Origin: Deltaproteobacteria bacterium
GTDB taxonomy: Bacteria > UBA10199 > GCA-002796325 > JACPFF01
Assembly (NCBI GenBank): GCA_016183065.1
Contig: JACPFF010000026.1
Location: 4,476-68,475 of the forward strand
Direction: 5' to 3'
DNA length: 64,000 nucleotides
Shown: piece after piece, positions 1-8,247 of the stretch
Layout: each line of letters starts with the position of its first letter
Position numbering within the stretch: the first letter of the stretch is position 1
Made by a program: the position numbers and the translations under genes
Notes under the pieces: model-generated
Databases searched by the model: none
What the model saw: only the letters and a program-made list of their open reading frames with translations
What the model was told of the DNA's origin: nothing

Positions 1-885
1 GCGATCCTCCTCATCAGTCCCCCCTTCTTCTTGGGAGTGATTGCCAAGACCAAGGCCACGTTTGCCGGACGCAAAGGGCCACCGCTCCTGCAAATGTACT
101 ATGACCTCTTCCGACTGTGCCGCAAGGGGACCGTCTACAGCCGCAGTACGTCGGTTGTCCTGCGACTGGCGCCAGGGATGGTGTGCGCGACGCTGCTGAT
201 GGCCGGGCTCTTCCTCCCCCTCTCGTGGCCGGCCCCGATCCATTTTTCCGGTGATCTGATCTTCTTTGCCTACGTGCTGGCCTTCGGCCGTTTTCTCCTC
301 CTCCTCTCGGCGCTCGATGTTGGATCCAGCTTTGCGGGAATGGGCGCGAGTCGGGAGGCGACCTTTGGGGCCTTGTCGGAATTGGCCTTCTTCATGGGGC
401 TGGTGACACTGGCGGTCATTACCCGGTCGGTTTCCTTTTCCGGGATCTTTCTCTGGGGGGGAACGCATCCGATGGTTCGTCCCGCCATTGTCCTCCTCTT
501 CCTGTCGTTTTTTCTCATACTCCTGACCGAAAATGCCCGCGTGCCGATCGATGACCCGAATACCCATTTGGAACTCACCATGATTCATGAAGCGATGCTG
601 CTCGATGTCGGGGGACCTGACTTGGGGCTGATGCTCTACGGTGCCGCCATCAAGCTCTTTCTCTTCATGGTCATCACGGTCTCGTGTGTGTGGCCCCCCA
701 CGGGGGGCTTTGGTCTGCCGGAGATCGGCGGGTTCTTCGCCAAGATGATCGGGATGGCGGTCGTGATCGGGGTGGTGGAGTCCTCCAACAGTCGATTACG
801 GCTGAGCAAGGTCCCGCAACTCCTTGTCGCCAATTTTGTGATTACTACCCTGGCCCTGCTCGCCACGATCCTGGGAGGGACCTGA
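1..885 (+). CDS. HyfC/HycD-like (NuoH-family) membrane subunit of a group-4 hydrogenase-like complex; 5' end lies outside the window
   Basis: Frame is open from nt 1 (AILLISPPFFLGVIAKTKATFAGRKGPPLLQ...). Polytopic. PIDDPNTHLELTMIHEAMLLD block is typical of HycD/NuoH. Stop overlaps the next ATG (TGATG at 883-887). Confidence 0.75.
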   Translation, partial: AILLISPPFFLGVIAKTKATFAGRKGPPLLQMYYDLFRLCRKGTVYSRSTSVVLRLAPGMVCATLLMAGLFLPLSWPAPIHFSGDLIFFAYVLAFGRFLLLLSALDVGSSFAGMGASREATFGALSELAFFMGLVTLAVITRSVSFSGIFLWGGTHPMVRPAIVLLFLSFFLILLTENARVPIDDPNTHLELTMIHEAMLLDVGGPDLGLMLYGAAIKLFLFMVITVSCVWPPTGGFGLPEIGGFFAKMIGMAVVIGVVESSNSRLRLSKVPQLLVANFVITTLALLATILGGT

Positions 886-1565
886 TGGACTGGCTCCTTG
901 TCGGCATCATCTTGAGCGCCTTTTTCCTGCTCGGACTTTCGCGATTGACCATCTGCATTCGCGTCGTGGCCATCCAGGGGGCATTGCTGTCGTTGCTCCC
1001 CATACTGGCCAAGGGGTCGCTTGCAGAGGTCCCTCTCGTGTTGATGACGCTTGGCACGTTTGCGATCAAGGCCGTCGCAATGCCATTTCTCCTCTTCCGC
1101 TCTCTTCGGGAGGCCGCGATCCGGAGGGAAGTGGAACCGATTATCAGCCTGCATCTCTCGCTGCTTGCCGGCGGTGGGATCGCCATCCTGGCGTTCTCCA
1201 GCCTCAAGGCGTTGCCGAAAGCGATCCCCCCTTTTTCCCCCATCGCGGTCCCTGTCGCGTTGACCGTGGTGCTCATCGGCTTTCTGCTCCTGATCTCCAG
1301 ACGAAAGGCCGTCACCCAGGTGATTGGTTTCTTGGTACTGGAAAATGGCGTCTTTCTCTTCGGGATGAGCCTGGTGGCCGGGTTTCCGCTGATTGTGGAA
1401 ATGGGCATTCTCCTCGATCTCTTGGTGGGGATTTTTGTCATGGGGATCATGATGTACCATATTCACCGGACCTTTGATCATATCGACATTCAGCCTCACA
1501 GTAGCGACTCCGTGGGAGCTCCAGCGGCTTTGCCGTTGCACGAGAGCGAGCGTGTCACCAGATGA
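885..1565 (+). CDS. HyfE-like small membrane subunit (NuoK-related)
   Basis: ATG at 885 preceded by GGGAGGGA. Hydrophobic 226-aa protein with VTQVIGFLVLENGVFLFG block as in hydrogenase-4 component E. ATGA overlap with the next gene at 1562-1565. Confidence 0.7.
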   Translation: MDWLLVGIILSAFFLLGLSRLTICIRVVAIQGALLSLLPILAKGSLAEVPLVLMTLGTFAIKAVAMPFLLFRSLREAAIRREVEPIISLHLSLLAGGGIAILAFSSLKALPKAIPPFSPIAVPVALTVVLIGFLLLISRRKAVTQVIGFLVLENGVFLFGMSLVAGFPLIVEMGILLDLLVGIFVMGIMMYHIHRTFDHIDIQPHSSDSVGAPAALPLHESERVTR

Positions 1566-3007
1566 TGCGCCTCATTGCTCCCATTGTCATCCCGACGCTG
1601 CTGGGCATCGTGGCCCTCCTGATCCGTGGCGCGACGCGCCGCAGGGAGCGGCGGCTTCTCCTCTCGATCGGGGCGATGGTCCATTTCATCCTCATCGCGT
1701 CTTTCCATCTGTTTCCCATTGCCGAGACGCCGTGGGCACTCCTTTCGCTTGATCCGTTGGGGCTCATTGTTCTCTCCATCAGCAGCCTCCTCTTTCTCTT
1801 GGTTTCTCTCTACGCCTGGGGCTACTTTCATCACGAGCGCGCACCCACGCATGGGGGAGTCAGCCGCGTCTTTACCCCCTGCATGCTCTTTTTTCTCGCG
1901 ACCATGACGCTCACCGCAGTCACGAATCACCTGGGGATTCTCTGGATGGCCATTGAAGGGACCACCCTCGCTTCGGCACCGCTCATCTATTATCACCGCC
2001 ACGAGAAGGCGCTGGAAGCCACCTGGAAATATCTCCTCATCTGTTCCGTGGGGATCGCCCTCGCCCTGCTCGGATTATTTTTCGTGGCAGCGGCCAATGG
2101 CGGCGATGGATCCGATCTCACGGTGACATCCCTCATGGCCCACGGTGGCGCGCTCGACCCCCGATGGCTGCGGATCGGCTTTATTCTGGTCCTGGTCGGC
2201 TTTGGCACGAAGATGGGCCTTGCCCCCATGCACGGCTGGCTTCCCGATGCCCATAGCGAGGCCCCGTCACCCGTGTCGGTCCTCCTGTCGGGGGCGCTGT
2301 TAAACTGTGCCTTTCTGGGGATCCTGCGATTTCACCAGGTGTGCCTTGCGGCCCACCTCGGCCCCTTCACCACGAGACTCTTCATCGTGTTCGGGCTGAT
2401 CTCTCTCTTTGTTGCTGCCGCGTTTATCGTGCACCAGCGTGATTACAAGAGGATGTTGGCGTACTCCAGTATTGAACATATGGGCATCTTGGCGCTCGGT
2501 GTCGGCATCGGGTCCGGATTTGGCAGCTTGTTGCACGCGATCAACCACTCTATTGCCAAGGCTCTCCTCTTTCTCACGGCCGGACAGATCTTGGTGGCCT
2601 ACAAAAGCAAGACGTCTTCCGAGATCCATGGTCTGCTGCGCACCGTGCCGTTCACCGGAGGTCTCCTGACGATCGGGACCCTGGCGGTCTTGGGAGTCCC
2701 TCCTTTTGCGCCATTCATGAGCGAATTGATCATCTGCAAGGATGGCCTTCTGCACGGTTATGGCATCCCCGTTGCCCTCTACCTCTTGGCCCTCGGCATG
2801 GTCTTCGTCGGCATGTCTCGCATTGTCCTTGGCATGATTCATGGCGCACCACATCCCCTTCCGCAGGGCGGTGAGCGACCCTCCTGGCCAATGCTTCTGG
2901 CTCCCGGACTGCTTGCCATCCCGCTCCTCTTCCTGGGCATCTATCTTCCGGCTCCATTGCGGGCGCTCCTGACCAGTGGGGGGCATCTCATCGGAGGCGC
3001 ACCATGA
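1562..3007 (+). CDS. HyfF-like antiporter-type subunit (NuoL/M/N family)
   Basis: 481 aa, about 14 TM segments. GTKMGLAPMHGWLPDAHSEAPSPVSVLLSG block is diagnostic of the NuoL/M/N / HyfB,D,F family. Translationally coupled on both sides. Confidence 0.8.
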   Translation: MMRLIAPIVIPTLLGIVALLIRGATRRRERRLLLSIGAMVHFILIASFHLFPIAETPWALLSLDPLGLIVLSISSLLFLLVSLYAWGYFHHERAPTHGGVSRVFTPCMLFFLATMTLTAVTNHLGILWMAIEGTTLASAPLIYYHRHEKALEATWKYLLICSVGIALALLGLFFVAAANGGDGSDLTVTSLMAHGGALDPRWLRIGFILVLVGFGTKMGLAPMHGWLPDAHSEAPSPVSVLLSGALLNCAFLGILRFHQVCLAAHLGPFTTRLFIVFGLISLFVAAAFIVHQRDYKRMLAYSSIEHMGILALGVGIGSGFGSLLHAINHSIAKALLFLTAGQILVAYKSKTSSEIHGLLRTVPFTGGLLTIGTLAVLGVPPFAPFMSELIICKDGLLHGYGIPVALYLLALGMVFVGMSRIVLGMIHGAPHPLPQGGERPSWPMLLAPGLLAIPLLFLGIYLPAPLRALLTSGGHLIGGAP

Positions 3008-4473
3008 ACGCACTCGGGGTGTGCCTCGCCAATGGCGTGCCGGCCGCGCTGGACACCGTGCCGTGTGTCGACGTTGCCGCCTGGCGCCAATGGATCATTG
3101 AAACCTGCAAAGGATCTACGGGAAGGATCGTCGCCCTCTTTGCCGATGCACACGGTGACCGCGTGCGACTGTACGCCATCATCGGGATGGACCTGCAGCA
3201 TGAGTTGTGGCTGGCGGCCACGGAGGTGTGCGCGCGGGCGCTCCACTACCCATCGCTCACGCCCGATCTTCCGGAGGCGCACTGGTTCGAGCGGGAACTG
3301 TACGAAGAATCCGGTGTGGTGCCGCAGGGGCACCCCTGGCTGAAACCGCTGCGCACAGACCGCCCGTACCCGTTCTATCGCGTCGATGGGGAAGGGATCC
3401 ATGAAGTCGCGGTCGGACCGGTCCATGCGGGGATTATTGAACCGGGACATTTTCGGTTTCAATGCCACGGCGAAAAGATTTTCCACCTGGAGATCCAGCT
3501 GGGGTACCAACATCGCGGCGTCGAGTCGCTGTTGCTTCAGGCACCGCCGGCCCGCCGTGCGATCCTCGCGGAATCGATTGCCGGAGATACAGTGATCGGA
3601 CACATGCTGGCCCATGCCCATGTGGTGGAGCAGTTGGCGGGACGGGCCATCCCCGCGCGGGCGGAAGGGTTGCGGGTCATCGCCCTGGAACTCGAACGCC
3701 TGGCCAACCATGTGGGCGATTTGGGGATGCTCTCCGCTGATATCGGTTTTCTGACGGCCGCAAATTACTTTGGACGACTCCGCGGCGAATTCCTGAATCT
3801 CCTGATGGCACTCACCGGGAACCGCTATGGACGTTCCTTTATCAGACCGGGCGGCGTGTTGCTCGATCTCTCTCGGACCGAGATCGCCGCATTCCAGAAG
3901 CGTCTGACACGGAGTGCCAAGGAGGTTCAGGCGGTGGCGAGGCTCTTCTTTTCAGCCACCTCCGTGCTCGATCGTCTGGAACAGACAGGGATTGTCGAGA
4001 CGACAGCGGCACAGGCGCTTGGCCTGGTGGGTCCCGCGGCACGGGCCTCCGGGTTGCATCGGGATGTCCGACACGATTATCCCACCGGCGACTATCGATC
4101 CTCCCCGTTCCCTCTGGTCCGGCTTACGACGGGAGATGTCTATGCCCGGGCACGGATCCGCGGGCTGGAAGTGCAGCATGCTCTCGATTTTCTCCAGAGA
4201 CGGTTGAAGAGTCTGCCGCAGGAAAAAATCTTCCTGGCCTGTGGTGCGGCACAACCCTCCGCCATCATTGTGAGTCTGGTGGAAGGTTGGCGGGGGGAAA
4301 TCGCCCACGTGGCGATTACCGATCGCGGCGGGGCATTCACACGGTACAAGATTGTCGATCCGTCGTTCCATAATTGGATGGGACTCCAGATCGCCATGCG
4401 GGGTGGCCAGATCTCGGATTTCCCACTCTGTAACAAGAGCTTTAATTTGTCGTATGCCGGACACGATCTCTAA
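3004..4473 (+). CDS. HycE/HyfG-like large subunit (NuoC-like + NuoD-like fusion) lacking the NiFe-binding cysteine motifs
   Basis: GPVHAGIIEPGHFRF, LELERLANH and C-terminal DPSFHNWMGLQIAMRGGQISDFPL blocks match HycE/NuoD. Only 7 Cys and no CxxC pair. See finding. Confidence 0.8.
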   Translation: MNALGVCLANGVPAALDTVPCVDVAAWRQWIIETCKGSTGRIVALFADAHGDRVRLYAIIGMDLQHELWLAATEVCARALHYPSLTPDLPEAHWFERELYEESGVVPQGHPWLKPLRTDRPYPFYRVDGEGIHEVAVGPVHAGIIEPGHFRFQCHGEKIFHLEIQLGYQHRGVESLLLQAPPARRAILAESIAGDTVIGHMLAHAHVVEQLAGRAIPARAEGLRVIALELERLANHVGDLGMLSADIGFLTAANYFGRLRGEFLNLLMALTGNRYGRSFIRPGGVLLDLSRTEIAAFQKRLTRSAKEVQAVARLFFSATSVLDRLEQTGIVETTAAQALGLVGPAARASGLHRDVRHDYPTGDYRSSPFPLVRLTTGDVYARARIRGLEVQHALDFLQRRLKSLPQEKIFLACGAAQPSAIIVSLVEGWRGEIAHVAITDRGGAFTRYKIVDPSFHNWMGLQIAMRGGQISDFPLCNKSFNLSYAGHDL

Positions 4474-4474
4474 T

Positions 4475-5230
4475 ATGTGGACCATAATAAAGAACAGGTT
4501 GCAACAAGGCTATCGCACGCAGGCGTTCCCCCCCCGGGAACCGTTGCCAGTCCCGTTTCGGGGGAGACCGGTGATTGACCCTGCGCGGTGCCAGAGCGGG
4601 TGCCAGGCGTGTGCGAATGCCTGCCCAACGCATGCGTTGACCACGCATCCCCTCACCATCGACCTTGGCCGATGTCTCTTCTGCCAGGACTGTGTCGCGG
4701 CCTGTCCCGACGGTGCAATCACGTATTCCCAAGATTATCGGCTTGCGGCATCGCGGAGAGAGGATCTCAGGTTGAGAGATGCCGAGATTCCGAAAGTGCA
4801 CCGCCTGGAAGAACAGATGCGCACACTCTTTGGGCGTTCTCTGAAACTGAGAGCCGTCTGTGCGGGAAGTTGCAACGGATGCGATCTCGAACTCCAGGCG
4901 TTGAATAATGTCGTCTTCGACCTCTCCCGTTTTGGCATTCAGTGTGTTGCATCGCCGCGACATGCGGATGGACTCATCATTACGGGGCCCGTGACTACAC
5001 GGATGCGGCTGGCACTGGAAAAAACCTTTGCCGCAGTGCCGGACCCAAAAATCGTCATCGCCATCGGCGCTTGTGCCATCAATGGCGGACCGTTTGAGGG
5101 GAGTCCAGCGGTCTGCAACGGCGCGGACGCGGTGATCCCGGTGGATCTGTACATCCCGGGCTGCCCCCCGCATCCACTCACGATCCTGGACGGATTCCTG
5201 CGGCTTCTCGGTCGCCTGAAAGACCGGTGA
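4475..5230 (+). CDS. Fusion of a 2x[4Fe-4S] ferredoxin-like (HycF/NuoI-like) domain with a HycG/NuoB-like small subunit
   Basis: ATG at 4475, 2 nt after the upstream stop. CQSGCQACANACP and CLFCQDCVAACP ferredoxin motifs, then CAGSCNGCDLE, ASPRHADGLIITGPVT, GACAINGGPF and IPGCPPHP (NuoB-type cluster ligands). Confidence 0.8.
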   Translation: MWTIIKNRLQQGYRTQAFPPREPLPVPFRGRPVIDPARCQSGCQACANACPTHALTTHPLTIDLGRCLFCQDCVAACPDGAITYSQDYRLAASRREDLRLRDAEIPKVHRLEEQMRTLFGRSLKLRAVCAGSCNGCDLELQALNNVVFDLSRFGIQCVASPRHADGLIITGPVTTRMRLALEKTFAAVPDPKIVIAIGACAINGGPFEGSPAVCNGADAVIPVDLYIPGCPPHPLTILDGFLRLLGRLKDR

Positions 5231-5622: not shown

Positions 5623-8247
5623 TCAACAATTCTCAAGATGATGAGAATCCGTCCGGTCAAAGAGCCGCGCCGGGAGGCGTGGTATGACGCTCAGGAGGGC
5701 GACGATCATGGTGGCAAGGTACGGGATCGATTGGATCATCAAGACGAGGATCCACGCGTGCATATCGAGTGTCAGTAATCCCTGCTGATAGACGAGGGCC
5801 ATGGCCGCCCCGAGCAATGTGAAAAAGAAGAAGACCTCCGCACGGATTGCGGCGAGTGTGCGGAGGAGGTGGCTTGTTGCCGTCATTTTGGGCGTGCGAA
5901 AAAACGGGACGCTGCTCGTCGTGATTCCTTGCAGAACGGCGATGGCAATCGTGTGGGAGAGTGCAATGCCCGCCAGGGCCGCCCCGCAGATCTTCCGGAA
6001 GGGCGCGCGAATGCGTGCGCGGTAGAGATAGATCAGTTTGCCGATTTTAAAACTGAACAGGGCGATCGGAAAGAGCGAGAACTCCGCCAGTGGCGGATCA
6101 ACGCGTTTTGGCAAAGAGAGCATGGCCGCACTCCAGCAGACCGCCGCCACATTGAACACAAGATTTGCCGCATCGGCCATCCACGGCAACCATCCGGCAA
6201 TAAAATGGTATTTTTGCCCGTAGGTGAGCGCACTCGCTTGTACGCCGATCAGTGAACGGAGATGCTGCTTGAGAATCTGCATGGCCCCGTAGGCCCAGCG
6301 GAAGCGCTGCCGTTTGTAGTCGAGAAAAGTATCCGGCATCACGCCTCTGCCGTAACTGGTCGGGATATAGATGGCCTCGTATCCCTGCTCAAACACGCGG
6401 AGTCCCAGCTCGGCGTCTTCGGTAATGCACCATGCGGCCCAACTGCCGACGGTTTCCAACACGGATTTCCGCACGAGTGTCATCGTGCCATGCTGGATAA
6501 TGGCATTGCGGTCATTGCGGGTGATCATCCCGATAAAGAAAAAACCGCTGTATTCGGCGTGGCACACGGCCTTGAAGGCATTGCGATGGGCGTCGCGATA
6601 GTCTTGCGGGGCCTGCACGATCGCGATGCGCGGGTTTTCAAATTGCGGGACCAGATCGAGCAACCAGTTCGTCTCGACGACATAATCGCTATCGATCACG
6701 GCAATGATCTCCGTCACGGAATTGGTGTGTTGCAGCGCACAATTGAGTGCCCCGGCCTTGAAGCCAGTCAGGTGGTCGATGTGGAAAAAGCGGAATTGAT
6801 TTCCAAGTATTTGACAGTGGGCCTCGACGGGTCGCCAGATGGCAGGATCCTCTGTGTTGTTATCAATCACCACCACTTCATATGCGGGGTAGTGCAATGC
6901 GGCGAGGGCGTTCAGCGTTTCGATGAGCATCGCCGGAGGCTCGTTGTACGCAGGCACGTGAATGGAGACAAACGGCGCGGCGACGTTGCAGGTCGATCCT
7001 TTCGCTAACGAACGACGCCGCTCCTTGCTCCAGAGGGCCTCGGCCCACTCGTGGGCCTCGGTGAGGATCACGACAATCACACCGATCATGCCGGTGACGA
7101 CGAGGATGCCGACAATGATCGAGGTGAGGGTCAAATATTGATGGACATATTTATAAATGATCCACACGGCGGTTGCAGAGGCGAGGTACGCGATGATGGC
7201 GAGAAAGCTCCGTCCCCGCGTCTTCAAAGTATGACTATCGAGCAGCAGGAAGCTCAGCATGATGATGGCAATGACCACCGAAATTCCGGCCAGCCAGTGC
7301 CACTGCGGGATGGCCACGATCGGCGTCTGGAGGGGGAATTTCAGATGGCGCTCGACATCGTAGACGCCCCAATAGGCCCCGACCGCGCCCTCGGTGTCGC
7401 GTTTCCACGGTTGATCGAAGGCCTCCATGATGTAATAGATGTATTCTTCCTGCTCCGCGCGATCGAGAAAGCGGCGCAAAAAAATGGCCTGGTTGGACGG
7501 CGACGCCACTGCCGACCGCCGCGTGCGGCCGTTGCTTGGCCAGCCGACCTCGGTCATGACGATCGGTTTTTTCGGAAAGAGCACGCGCAGGCTATTCATG
7601 TGTTGCACAATATATTCCACGGCCTGATCGAGATGGATGCCCTCCCAGTACGGCAACATATGGACGGCGACAAAGTCGACATGCTCCGCAAGTTGCGGAT
7701 ATTTGATCCACACGTGCCAGGGCTCCGCAGTACTGACCGGCCGGTCCAACTCTGCGCGCACGCGGTCGAGGTGCACGGCGAGCTCATCCACCGTCACATC
7801 GCCCCGGAGGATGGCCTCGTTTCCGATGATCACGCGGACGACATTGCGGTGCTGCTGCGCGACGCGAATCAGTTCCGCGACTTCCCGTTCGTTGTTCTCC
7901 CGCCGCGTATCGATCCAGGCGCCGAGCGTCACATTAAGGTCGTGTTTTTCGGCCAGGGACGGGATCTGTGCCAGGACATCTTCCATGGAATAGGTGCGGA
8001 TGGCGTGCACTTTTTTGGCCAGCAGCGCGAGGTCGGTTTCGATTTCCTCTGGGGTGGGAAACGTGTCGGTCAGCGGGCTCTCATCCATCCGCATCGGCGA
8101 AAAGGAAAAGCCCTGGATCATTTTGGGCCACGGGGGTTCCTCTTCAGGCCGATTCAGATAGGCCCAGAATCCGACGCTCAGGATGGCCACGGCCATGACG
8201 ACCAGAAAATTGGCCCGGATATTGGATGGGCGCAAGGTCAGGTGCAT
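5623..8247 (-). CDS. Membrane glucan synthase, GH17-like glucanase/transglycosylase domain fused to a GT2 processive glycosyltransferase (Bradyrhizobium/Pseudomonas NdvB-like)
   Basis: N-terminal TM. GH17-like blocks (IIGNEAIL, MTEVGWPS). TM linker. GT2 blocks VSIHVPAYNEPP, VIDNNT, DSDYVV, TEDAELG and QRFRWAYG (QxxRW). C-terminal TMs. Confidence 0.7.
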   Translation of the reverse strand: MHLTLRPSNIRANFLVVMAVAILSVGFWAYLNRPEEEPPWPKMIQGFSFSPMRMDESPLTDTFPTPEEIETDLALLAKKVHAIRTYSMEDVLAQIPSLAEKHDLNVTLGAWIDTRRENNEREVAELIRVAQQHRNVVRVIIGNEAILRGDVTVDELAVHLDRVRAELDRPVSTAEPWHVWIKYPQLAEHVDFVAVHMLPYWEGIHLDQAVEYIVQHMNSLRVLFPKKPIVMTEVGWPSNGRTRRSAVASPSNQAIFLRRFLDRAEQEEYIYYIMEAFDQPWKRDTEGAVGAYWGVYDVERHLKFPLQTPIVAIPQWHWLAGISVVIAIIMLSFLLLDSHTLKTRGRSFLAIIAYLASATAVWIIYKYVHQYLTLTSIIVGILVVTGMIGVIVVILTEAHEWAEALWSKERRRSLAKGSTCNVAAPFVSIHVPAYNEPPAMLIETLNALAALHYPAYEVVVIDNNTEDPAIWRPVEAHCQILGNQFRFFHIDHLTGFKAGALNCALQHTNSVTEIIAVIDSDYVVETNWLLDLVPQFENPRIAIVQAPQDYRDAHRNAFKAVCHAEYSGFFFIGMITRNDRNAIIQHGTMTLVRKSVLETVGSWAAWCITEDAELGLRVFEQGYEAIYIPTSYGRGVMPDTFLDYKRQRFRWAYGAMQILKQHLRSLIGVQASALTYGQKYHFIAGWLPWMADAANLVFNVAAVCWSAAMLSLPKRVDPPLAEFSLFPIALFSFKIGKLIYLYRARIRAPFRKICGAALAGIALSHTIAIAVLQGITTSSVPFFRTPKMTATSHLLRTLAAIRAEVFFFFTLLGAAMALVYQQGLLTLDMHAWILVLMIQSIPYLATMIVALLSVIPRLPARLFDRTDSHHLENC

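Follow-up and report, generated by a model that had tools for sequence, protein, structure and literature searches.

The systems closest to the locus reported here are complexes known as Ehr (for energy-converting-hydrogenase-related), which were first seen and named in Geobacter sulfurreducens (GSU0739-45, with a NuoL-like EhrA, a HyfE-like EhrC, EhrL and EhrS; PMC7894505). The family usually lacks the cysteines that hold the [NiFe] centre of hydrogenases, and Desulfotomaculum ruminis EhrL is a member that keeps its four (PMC3569383). Reports on comammox Nitrospira put Ehr near group 4f (PMC10284858), and it has also been reported in ammonia-oxidising archaea (PMC10432482). We analysed a stretch of 64,000 nucleotides from a Deltaproteobacteria bacterium (assembly GCA_016183065.1, contig JACPFF010000026.1; G000:C6:4476-68475 in our handles), hereafter the window. 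Its positions 1-5230, together with upstream contig sequence, carry an ehr operon. We are nearly certain that this operon encodes a six-subunit Ehr-type complex, EhrA-B-C-D-L-S, i.e., a derivative of the group-4 membrane hydrogenases without a [NiFe] centre in its large subunit. To the explanation as a whole, which combines this identity with the mechanism proposed below, we assign a probability of roughly 0.5.

Genes were called from the listing of open reading frames (ORFs) and from Pfam and NCBIfam scans. In operon order, with window positions unless contig coordinates are given and lengths in amino acids (aa), they are as follows.

G000:C6:2402-4450, wholly upstream of the window: ehrA, NuoL/HyfB-like antiporter subunit, 682 aa (PF00361, E=1.8e-51)
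1-885, + strand: ehrB, NuoH/HyfC/HycD-like membrane subunit (PF00146, E=6e-31)
885-1565, + strand: ehrC, HyfE-like membrane subunit, 226 aa (NCBIfam NF008556, hydrogenase 4 membrane subunit, E=3e-19)
1562-3007, + strand: ehrD, HyfF/NuoN-like antiporter-type subunit, 481 aa (PF00361, E=1.4e-50; top NCBIfam match 'hydrogenase 4 subunit F', E=4e-108)
3004-4473, + strand: ehrL, fused NuoC+NuoD / HycE-like large subunit, 489 aa, without [NiFe] ligands (PF00346 and PF00329)
4475-5230, + strand: ehrS, fused HycF/NuoI and HycG/NuoB small subunit, 251 aa (PF01058, E=1e-30, and Fer4 families)

The large subunit: former metal site and phylogeny

When EhrL was compared with all Protein Data Bank (PDB) chains using phmmer, the top match was E. 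coli HycE (7z0s_E, E=1.2e-45), followed by MbhL (1e-38) and Nqo4 (1.5e-34); MbsL (6u8y_L) was found at E=2e-19. The phmmer alignment laid ESIAGDTVIGH on HycE DRVCGICGFAH and SFNLSYAGHDL on SLDPCYSC. A MAFFT alignment of 103 sequences, including E. coli HycE, HyfG and NuoCD from NC_000913, gave the same register, in which HycE C241, C244, C531 and C534 correspond to A193, T196, S483 and G486 of EhrL, and the Arg of the HycE motif RxCGxC corresponds to S191. An AlphaFold model of EhrL built on 40 homologues (predicted local distance difference test score, 83; predicted template-modelling score, 0.86) found HycE as its best fold match (template-modelling score 0.83, E=1e-26), with NuoCD chains next. 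The initial annotation had aligned EhrL with HycE by eye; the register proved to be identical in HMMER, MAFFT and the fold search, and a shifted manual alignment is ruled out. Neither phmmer nor MAFFT placed cysteine pairs at the L1 or L2 ligand positions. A residue count likewise agreed with that annotation, which had given the 489-aa protein seven cysteines and no CxxC pair; the cysteines are at positions 7, 21, 35, 76, 154, 413 and 476. HycE R537, the maturation cleavage site, was aligned by MAFFT with L489, the last residue of EhrL. That is, mature HycE and EhrL share the same end point, and EhrL has no C-terminal extension. Three features of the remodelled site were located by both phmmer and MAFFT.

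3571-3603, + strand: former L1 motif, residues 190-200, ESIAGDTVIGH
3733-3747, + strand: D246 in SADIG, at the position of the complex I quinone-site Asp
4429-4470, + strand: former L2 motif and C-terminus, residues 476-489, CNKSFNLSYAGHDL

The residues that replace the ligands are strongly conserved. S483 and G486 were invariant in all 91 cysteine-free sequences, in which position 193 was Ala or Ser and position 196 was Thr or Ser. D195, located between the former pair of N-terminal ligands, was found in 85 of these 91 sequences and in none of the seven cysteine-bearing relatives. At the position of D246, Asp was present in 82 of the 91 cysteine-free sequences, the cysteine-bearing relatives had Gly (5/7) or Asp (2/7), and HycE and HyfG had Phe. 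D246 was aligned with E. coli NuoCD D325 and Thermus thermophilus Nqo4 D139 in both phmmer and MAFFT; in complex I, this quinone-site Asp pairs with the quinone-binding His. The hydrogenase-type loop IEPGHFRF was retained in EhrL. On these alignments, EhrL has lost all four [NiFe] ligands, and the motifs that replace them show conservation and not decay.

Searching the full library gave 150 representatives at 50% clustering. Both CxxC motifs were lacking in 141 of them, whereas eight (35-41% identical) carried ERxCGxCxxSH and LCYxCxDR. One cysteine-bearing cluster (P0201) was named 'hydrogenase large subunit, Desulfotomaculum sp.', which fits the published remark on D. ruminis EhrL (PMC3569383). 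Trees rooted on NuoCD were built with FastTree (n=103) and IQ-TREE under LG+G4 (n=44), from samples that included no curated HydDB references for groups 4b-4i. HycE and HyfG formed a separate clade outside the query group (FastTree 1.0; IQ-TREE 100), so that EhrL was nested within group 4a in neither tree. Cysteine-bearing and cysteine-free relatives were united (FastTree 0.72; IQ-TREE 96), and the query sat deep within cysteine-free subclades with ultrafast bootstrap values of 96-100. Monophyly of the cysteine-free set was supported at 0.96 by FastTree, whereas IQ-TREE gave it just 62. The cysteine-free P0267 paired with the cysteine-bearing P0259 in both trees, a grouping that makes a second, independent loss of the ligands possible. 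Given the sequences sampled, the family appears to have branched off from hydrogenases as a derived group and does not look like an intermediate on the stem to complex I. The initial annotation had described Ehr complexes as evolutionary intermediates between hydrogenases and complex I, and this part of it is not supported by the NuoCD-rooted trees, in which the cysteine-free sequences form a derived radiation beside cysteine-bearing relatives and do not sit on the NuoD stem.

Retained parts, conservation and genomic setting

Five translationally coupled genes in a hyf/hyc layout had been annotated. The layout and the coupling were confirmed by the ORFs, the Pfam and NCBIfam matches and the gene junctions; the number of genes was not, because ORFs in the 4.4 kb of upstream contig sequence revealed a sixth operon gene, ehrA, which is the first in order and whose end meets the start of ehrB. 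The start of ehrB itself lies 36 nt upstream of the window start. From ehrB onwards, the junctions read TGATG (the ehrB stop overlapping the ehrC ATG), ATGA, ATGA and TAAtATG, and the genes are therefore translationally coupled. At its 3' end the operon is closed by a convergent glycosyltransferase gene.

The N-terminal part of EhrS is a HycF/NuoI-like 2x[4Fe-4S] domain with cysteine motifs at nt 4589-4627 and 4673-4708 (CQSGCQACANACP and CLFCQDCVAACP); each has four cysteines of the CxxCxxCxxxCP type, the first motif with CxxxC. The HycG/NuoB-like part, whose NuoB-type cysteines begin at residue 129, carries CAGSCNGC (4859-4882), GACA (5066-5077) and GCPP (5159-5170). Alignment with HycF/HyfH/NuoI and HycG/HyfI/NuoB showed that all 12 (8+4) iron-sulfur (Fe-S) cysteines are retained, including the four of the NuoB-like part that had been annotated, and that EhrS lacks the extended C-terminal tails seen in HycF and HycG. 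In EhrA, the Glu of transmembrane helix (TM) 5, the Lys of TM7, the Lys of TM8 and the Glu of TM12 are as in NuoM/HyfB. In EhrD, the Glu of TM5, the Lys of TM7 and the Glu of TM12 are retained, and the TM8 residue is Asn, which is exactly the HyfF state. With the Fe-S ligands and the antiporter Glu and Lys residues retained, both the wire for electrons and the residues of the ion channels are intact, and in these alignments the catalytic metal site is the only part that is gone. Since the Fe-S ligands are all conserved, electron transfer is under selection.

The nearest 120 homologues (52-67% identity) came from metagenome-assembled genomes of 'Deltaproteobacteria' and Omnitrophota. All 120 contained the cysteine-free motifs E[ST]xxGD[ST] and SF.LSY.G.D, and SFNLSYAGHDL was exact in 100. 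For gene order, we used the best 80 of at least 581 related stretches obtained by scanning one genome per species. These 80 loci (48-66% identity) represent 80 species and more than 10 phyla, including Omnitrophota, Verrucomicrobiota, Planctomycetota, Acidobacteriota, Elusimicrobia, Kiritimatiellae, Myxococcota and Methylomirabilota. The order A-B-C-D-L-S was common to them wherever the contig extended far enough, and the NuoI+NuoB fusion was present in 71 of 74 related loci. In the organism's own class, 24 of 93 genomes, belonging to 10 families, carried EhrL at E<=1e-60. A hydrogenase operon in decay, reduced to a remnant without function, could also be expected to have lost all its catalytic ligands. 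However, the reading frames are intact and overlapping, identity across phyla is 50-67% with more than 90 invariant columns, the replacement residues are invariant, and the gene order is kept in 80 species; a remnant is hardly credible, and a pseudogene is ruled out by the conservation of motifs, columns and gene order.

We searched the organism's own genome (1.97 Mb, 88.8% complete), to which the following absences refer. The search that had been proposed for hyp maturation genes and a HycI-type protease returned none: HypC, HypD and HypF were not found, HypA and HypB were not found by tblastn, and the HycI protease (PF01750) was not found. There was also no [NiFe] hydrogenase large subunit (PF00374), no [FeFe] hydrogenase, no haem-copper oxidase, and no molybdopterin-family protein (PF00384), hence no formate dehydrogenase. 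HypD was missing from 23 of the 24 EhrL-carrying genomes of the class, the sole carrier with HypD being G083, and 14 of the HypD-free carriers were 95-100% complete; HypD was found in 13 genomes of the class that lack EhrL. The pattern of EhrL without HypD spans 10 families, in which kin are not independent observations. It follows from the 23 carriers that the complex routinely exists without Ni-Fe maturation. Thus the assignment to an Ehr-type complex made in the initial annotation is supported by the layout, the loss of the four ligands, the retention of the Fe-S cysteines, the absence of hyp and HycI genes and the position outside group 4a.

These results bear on the possibility that the complex is still a hydrogenase, in which a non-canonical EhrL site would produce or take up H2 in the absence of the four cysteines, a proposal made for Hyq of Azorhizobium caulinodans. 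The genes hyqRBCEFGI have the same order, HyqG also lacks both CxxC motifs, and their deletion alters diazotrophic growth and H2 evolution (PMC2650096, PMC3357923). In addition, most of the scaffold typical of hydrogenases is retained in EhrL, as is the Glu of the proton relay (E146). On the other hand, the four ligands are all gone, no hyp or HycI gene was found here and 23 of the 24 class carriers lack HypD. The authors of the Hyq work themselves rate a Ni-Fe site as 'uncertain, if not unlikely', and the small subunits of the Hyq type are NuoB-only, unlike EhrS. A 'group 4f hydrogenase' of Methylocystis sumavensis, which is strongly acid-induced and carries the motif 'AARVS', gave no detectable H2 (bioRxiv 10.1101/2025.08.29.672306). 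We consider a hydrogenase quite improbable. A still bolder version, in which the cysteine-free pocket (D195, T/S196, S483, G486 and D246) would be a new catalytic site handling H2 without nickel or Hyp maturation, in line with what the genetics of Azorhizobium Hyq imply, is very unlikely; if true, membrane hydrogenases free of nickel would form a large class that has gone unrecognised. Separately, 'AARVS' corresponds to the L1 position as it reads in cysteine-free P0213-like proteins, which suggests that the Methylocystis 'group 4f' enzyme may be of the Ehr/Hyq type and not a hydrogenase.

Another proposal, made for Margulisbacteria and Saganbacteria (PMC6349859), would make the complex the membrane-bound part of an assembly of formate dehydrogenase and Ehr, i.e., one that couples formate oxidation to ion pumping in the manner of formate hydrogenlyase but with another acceptor. 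It agrees with the finding that every Geobacter Ehr subunit is more abundant on formate (PMC7894505) and with the co-induction of formate dehydrogenases and 'group 4f' genes in Methylocystis. Against it, the genome yielded no molybdopterin-family protein, neither an FdhF nor a HycB-type electron-input partner is encoded in or beside the operon, and no formate dehydrogenase gene recurs next to the operon in the 80 related loci. This proposal is quite improbable for the present organism, and a formate dehydrogenase partner was rejected in view of both the genome and the neighbourhoods.

The neighbourhoods revealed a recurrent candidate regulator. In 43 of the 52 loci with enough upstream sequence, the operon was preceded on the same strand by a gene of approximately 236 aa combining HTH_17 and PTS_EIIA_2 domains (helix-turn-helix, HTH; phosphotransferase system, PTS), PtsN-like and with the phospho-His motif GIAIPH. 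Its position was either immediately upstream of ehrA or in between a pair of ehrA paralogues (e.g., L014:2035-2964 and L071). This placement suggests control of Ehr of the nitrogen-related phosphotransferase (PTS-Ntr) type. The HTH-EIIA gene was not found by tblastn in the organism's own genome, which gave one weak EIIA-domain match on contig C23 only. Instead, its locus has, upstream of ehrA, a divergent ArsR/SmtB-family regulator (G000:C6:1995-2336, - strand), which is 39% identical to ArsR-type genes adjoining ehr in four other loci (L018, L021, L059 and L079) and may thus be the local regulator.

The HTH-EIIA gene is one reason to consider that the main role of the complex might be ion, pH or stress homeostasis, with the complex exporting H+, Na+ or some other ion under redox power or redox gating. 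Induction of the Methylocystis complex by at least 16-fold at acid pH points the same way, as does a SulP transporter that adjoins the operon in four loci. However, that regulator gene was not recovered here, and the conserved Fe-S ligands mean that electron transfer is under selection. Fluoride-riboswitch control was ruled out, because Rfam scans were empty both upstream of the operon, even at E<=1, and in eight related loci at the gathering score. Homeostasis as the main role is unlikely, though it deserves to be kept in view; it overlaps with the ferredoxin-driven pump that we prefer rather than excluding it.

Further observations concern the neighbouring genes. The SulP-family transporter has a STAS domain and lies upstream of the HTH-EIIA gene and ehr in four Omnitrophota loci (L010, L018, L027 and L043). 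Rex-like repressor genes occur near the ehr operon in four Verrucomicrobia-type loci. The convergent gene downstream of ehrS (window 5623-8247, - strand) encodes an 874-aa membrane protein with a family-2 glycosyltransferase and a weak N-terminal GH17-like match, and by these matches it looks like a beta-glucan synthase. An IS30-like transposase ORF (L002:610-1467, + strand) was found near the contig start, approximately 1 kb upstream of the ArsR-type regulator.

A possible mechanism and its direction

The mechanism that we prefer begins with reduced ferredoxin, the likely sources of which would be the two POR_N-type 2-oxoacid:ferredoxin oxidoreductases found in the genome. In Mbh and Ech, ferredoxin electrons enter at the NuoI-type subunits MbhN and EchF. 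Ferredoxin would dock in the same way on the HycF/NuoI-like domain of EhrS, and electrons would then pass through the two [4Fe-4S] clusters to the NuoB-type cluster. The added two-cluster wire, which reaches the protein surface, argues for a soluble electron partner. The acceptor may sit in a remodelled pocket at the EhrL/EhrS/EhrB interface, in which D195, T196, S483, G486 and D246 would take the place of the four cysteines. It would not be a proton; among the candidates, a quinone of the membrane is the most probable. The redox step would drive export of H+ or Na+ through EhrB, EhrC, EhrA and EhrD; the complex could also run backwards. We infer the donor, the acceptor and the ion pumping, and the full chain from ferredoxin through the Fe-S clusters to a non-proton acceptor, driving ion pumping, is tentative, its odds being somewhat short of even.

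Quinone is favoured because of the complex I-like Asp (D246), the likely presence of a quinone pool and the inference of the Hyq authors themselves. The pool is likely since the genome encodes a canonical nuoA-nuoB-nuoCD, standing alone at G000:C27:89038-91522, with intact quinone-site residues; nuoI lies elsewhere (G000:C21:29339-29776). Canonical NuoH and NuoL/M/N were not found by tblastn of the genome, NuoJ and NuoK had no reported match, and EhrA and EhrD were the only PF00361 matches in the assembly, which also yielded no molybdopterin domain that could belong to NuoG. Among 20 sampled relatives, the 12 Ehr-bearing genomes had three NuoLMN-type genes in addition to the two of the Ehr type, which suggests that the remaining complex I genes of this organism are probably in the missing 11% of the genome.

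Several points weigh against this explanation. The other quinone-headgroup ligands of NuoCD are replaced in EhrL (Y273 by G194 and H224 by I145 in the MAFFT alignment), and the case for quinone is weak because these Tyr and His ligands are missing. The genome is incomplete, and its absences are therefore no proof. Genetic work on Azorhizobium Hyq attributed H2 uptake and evolution to a related complex (PMC2650096, PMC3357923), and the Geobacter Ehr subunits rise on formate (PMC7894505).

As complex I-type enzymes are reversible, the complex might instead operate in reverse in vivo, with the proton-motive force driving quinol electrons up to ferredoxin and the complex thereby providing low-potential reductant. 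Relatives do occur in aerobes that need reduced ferredoxin, such as comammox Nitrospira (PMC10284858), Paraburkholderia and Rhodoferax. In the present genome, however, no haem-copper oxidase was found, and the 2-oxoacid oxidoreductases, which reduce ferredoxin, are a better fit to ferredoxin oxidation by Ehr. Direction is not readable from sequence. We regard reverse operation as unlikely here and retain ferredoxin oxidation as the preferred direction.

Comparison with known systems

The Geobacter Ehr complex shares with this one the subunit set, the lost [NiFe] cysteines and the kept Fe-S clusters of the small subunit (PMC7894505, PMC3569383, PMC6349859, PMC10284858). No architectural difference was found in a comparison by published subunit description only; the regulator here is of the divergent ArsR type. 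The nearest relatives that keep the ligands are the cysteine-bearing EhrL proteins, which are 35-41% identical and group 4f-like (D. ruminis Desru_3260-3265). They belong to the same six-gene family, share DFPL.NKSF.L..Y near the C-terminus and likewise have no C-terminal extension. They differ in keeping ERxCGxCxxSH and LCYxCxDR, i.e., four ligands, and in lacking D195 and mostly D246.

The best match in sequence and fold throughout is E. coli Hyf/Hyc (hydrogenases 4 and 3) of group 4a, the group of formate hydrogenlyase (PDB 7Z0S), with EhrA corresponding to HyfB, EhrB to HyfC, EhrC to HyfE, EhrD to HyfF, EhrL to HycE/HyfG and EhrS to HycF plus HycG. In contrast to Hyf/Hyc, the present complex lacks the Ni-Fe ligands, HyfA/HycB, HyfD, HyfJ, the FdhF partner and the maturation genes, its HycF and HycG parts are fused, and it branches outside group 4a. 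With complex I it shares the modular plan, an N2-type cluster, intact charged residues of the antiporter subunits and the Asp at the position of NuoCD D325. Unlike complex I, it has no quinone-binding Tyr and His, its operon includes neither NuoA/J/K nor the NuoEFG NADH module and has a HyfE-like subunit instead, and a separate canonical NuoA-B-CD is encoded in the same genome. The Mbh and Mbs (Mbx) complexes of Pyrococcus furiosus (PDB 6CFW, 6U8Y) are also ferredoxin-fed membrane complexes of the group-4 type, and Mbs offers a precedent, being a relative in which a different acceptor has taken the place of protons. Their similarity is weaker (MbhL E=1e-38 and MbsL E=2e-19, compared with 1e-45 for HycE), and no Mrp-type small subunits are encoded in the operon studied here.

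Hyq of A. caulinodans, by its published description, has six structural genes in the same order (B-C-E-F-G-I) and a fused NuoC::D without CxxC. It differs in that HyqI is a plain NuoB homologue (Cys55/58/112/152), whereas the NuoB part here sits behind a 2x[4Fe-4S] domain, and in that hyq is part of the nif regulon of an aerobe. A beta/gamma-proteobacterial subclade of this cysteine-free family is of the Hyq type (L090-L169; identity about 35-42%): it shares the gene order, and in 79 of 80 loci its small subunit is NuoB-only. Its members include Paraburkholderia xenovorans LB400 (L160, NC_007952.1:3003348-3022811), Rhodoferax ferrireducens, Ramlibacter and Accumulibacter. In a Methylibium sp. 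(L150, NZ_OZ257250.1), a pair of L and a fused NuoI-NuoB directly adjoins a second A-B-C-D set, and both small-subunit architectures may coexist in this one genome. The two architectures, with and without the ferredoxin-like wire, point to different electron partners. The cultured carriers P. xenovorans LB400 and R. ferrireducens are possible experimental hosts, albeit for the NuoB-only variant.

Ehr is among the most widespread respiratory-type machines that lack a known reaction, as it occurs in anaerobes, nitrifiers, methanotrophs and many uncultured phyla. In this family the loss of the Ni-Fe site has become fixed, and the site has been replaced by invariant Ser and Gly and a two-Asp signature, one Asp of which matches the quinone-site Asp of complex I. 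The locus described here adds no new kind to those already published; it is a typical member of the widespread Ehr family.

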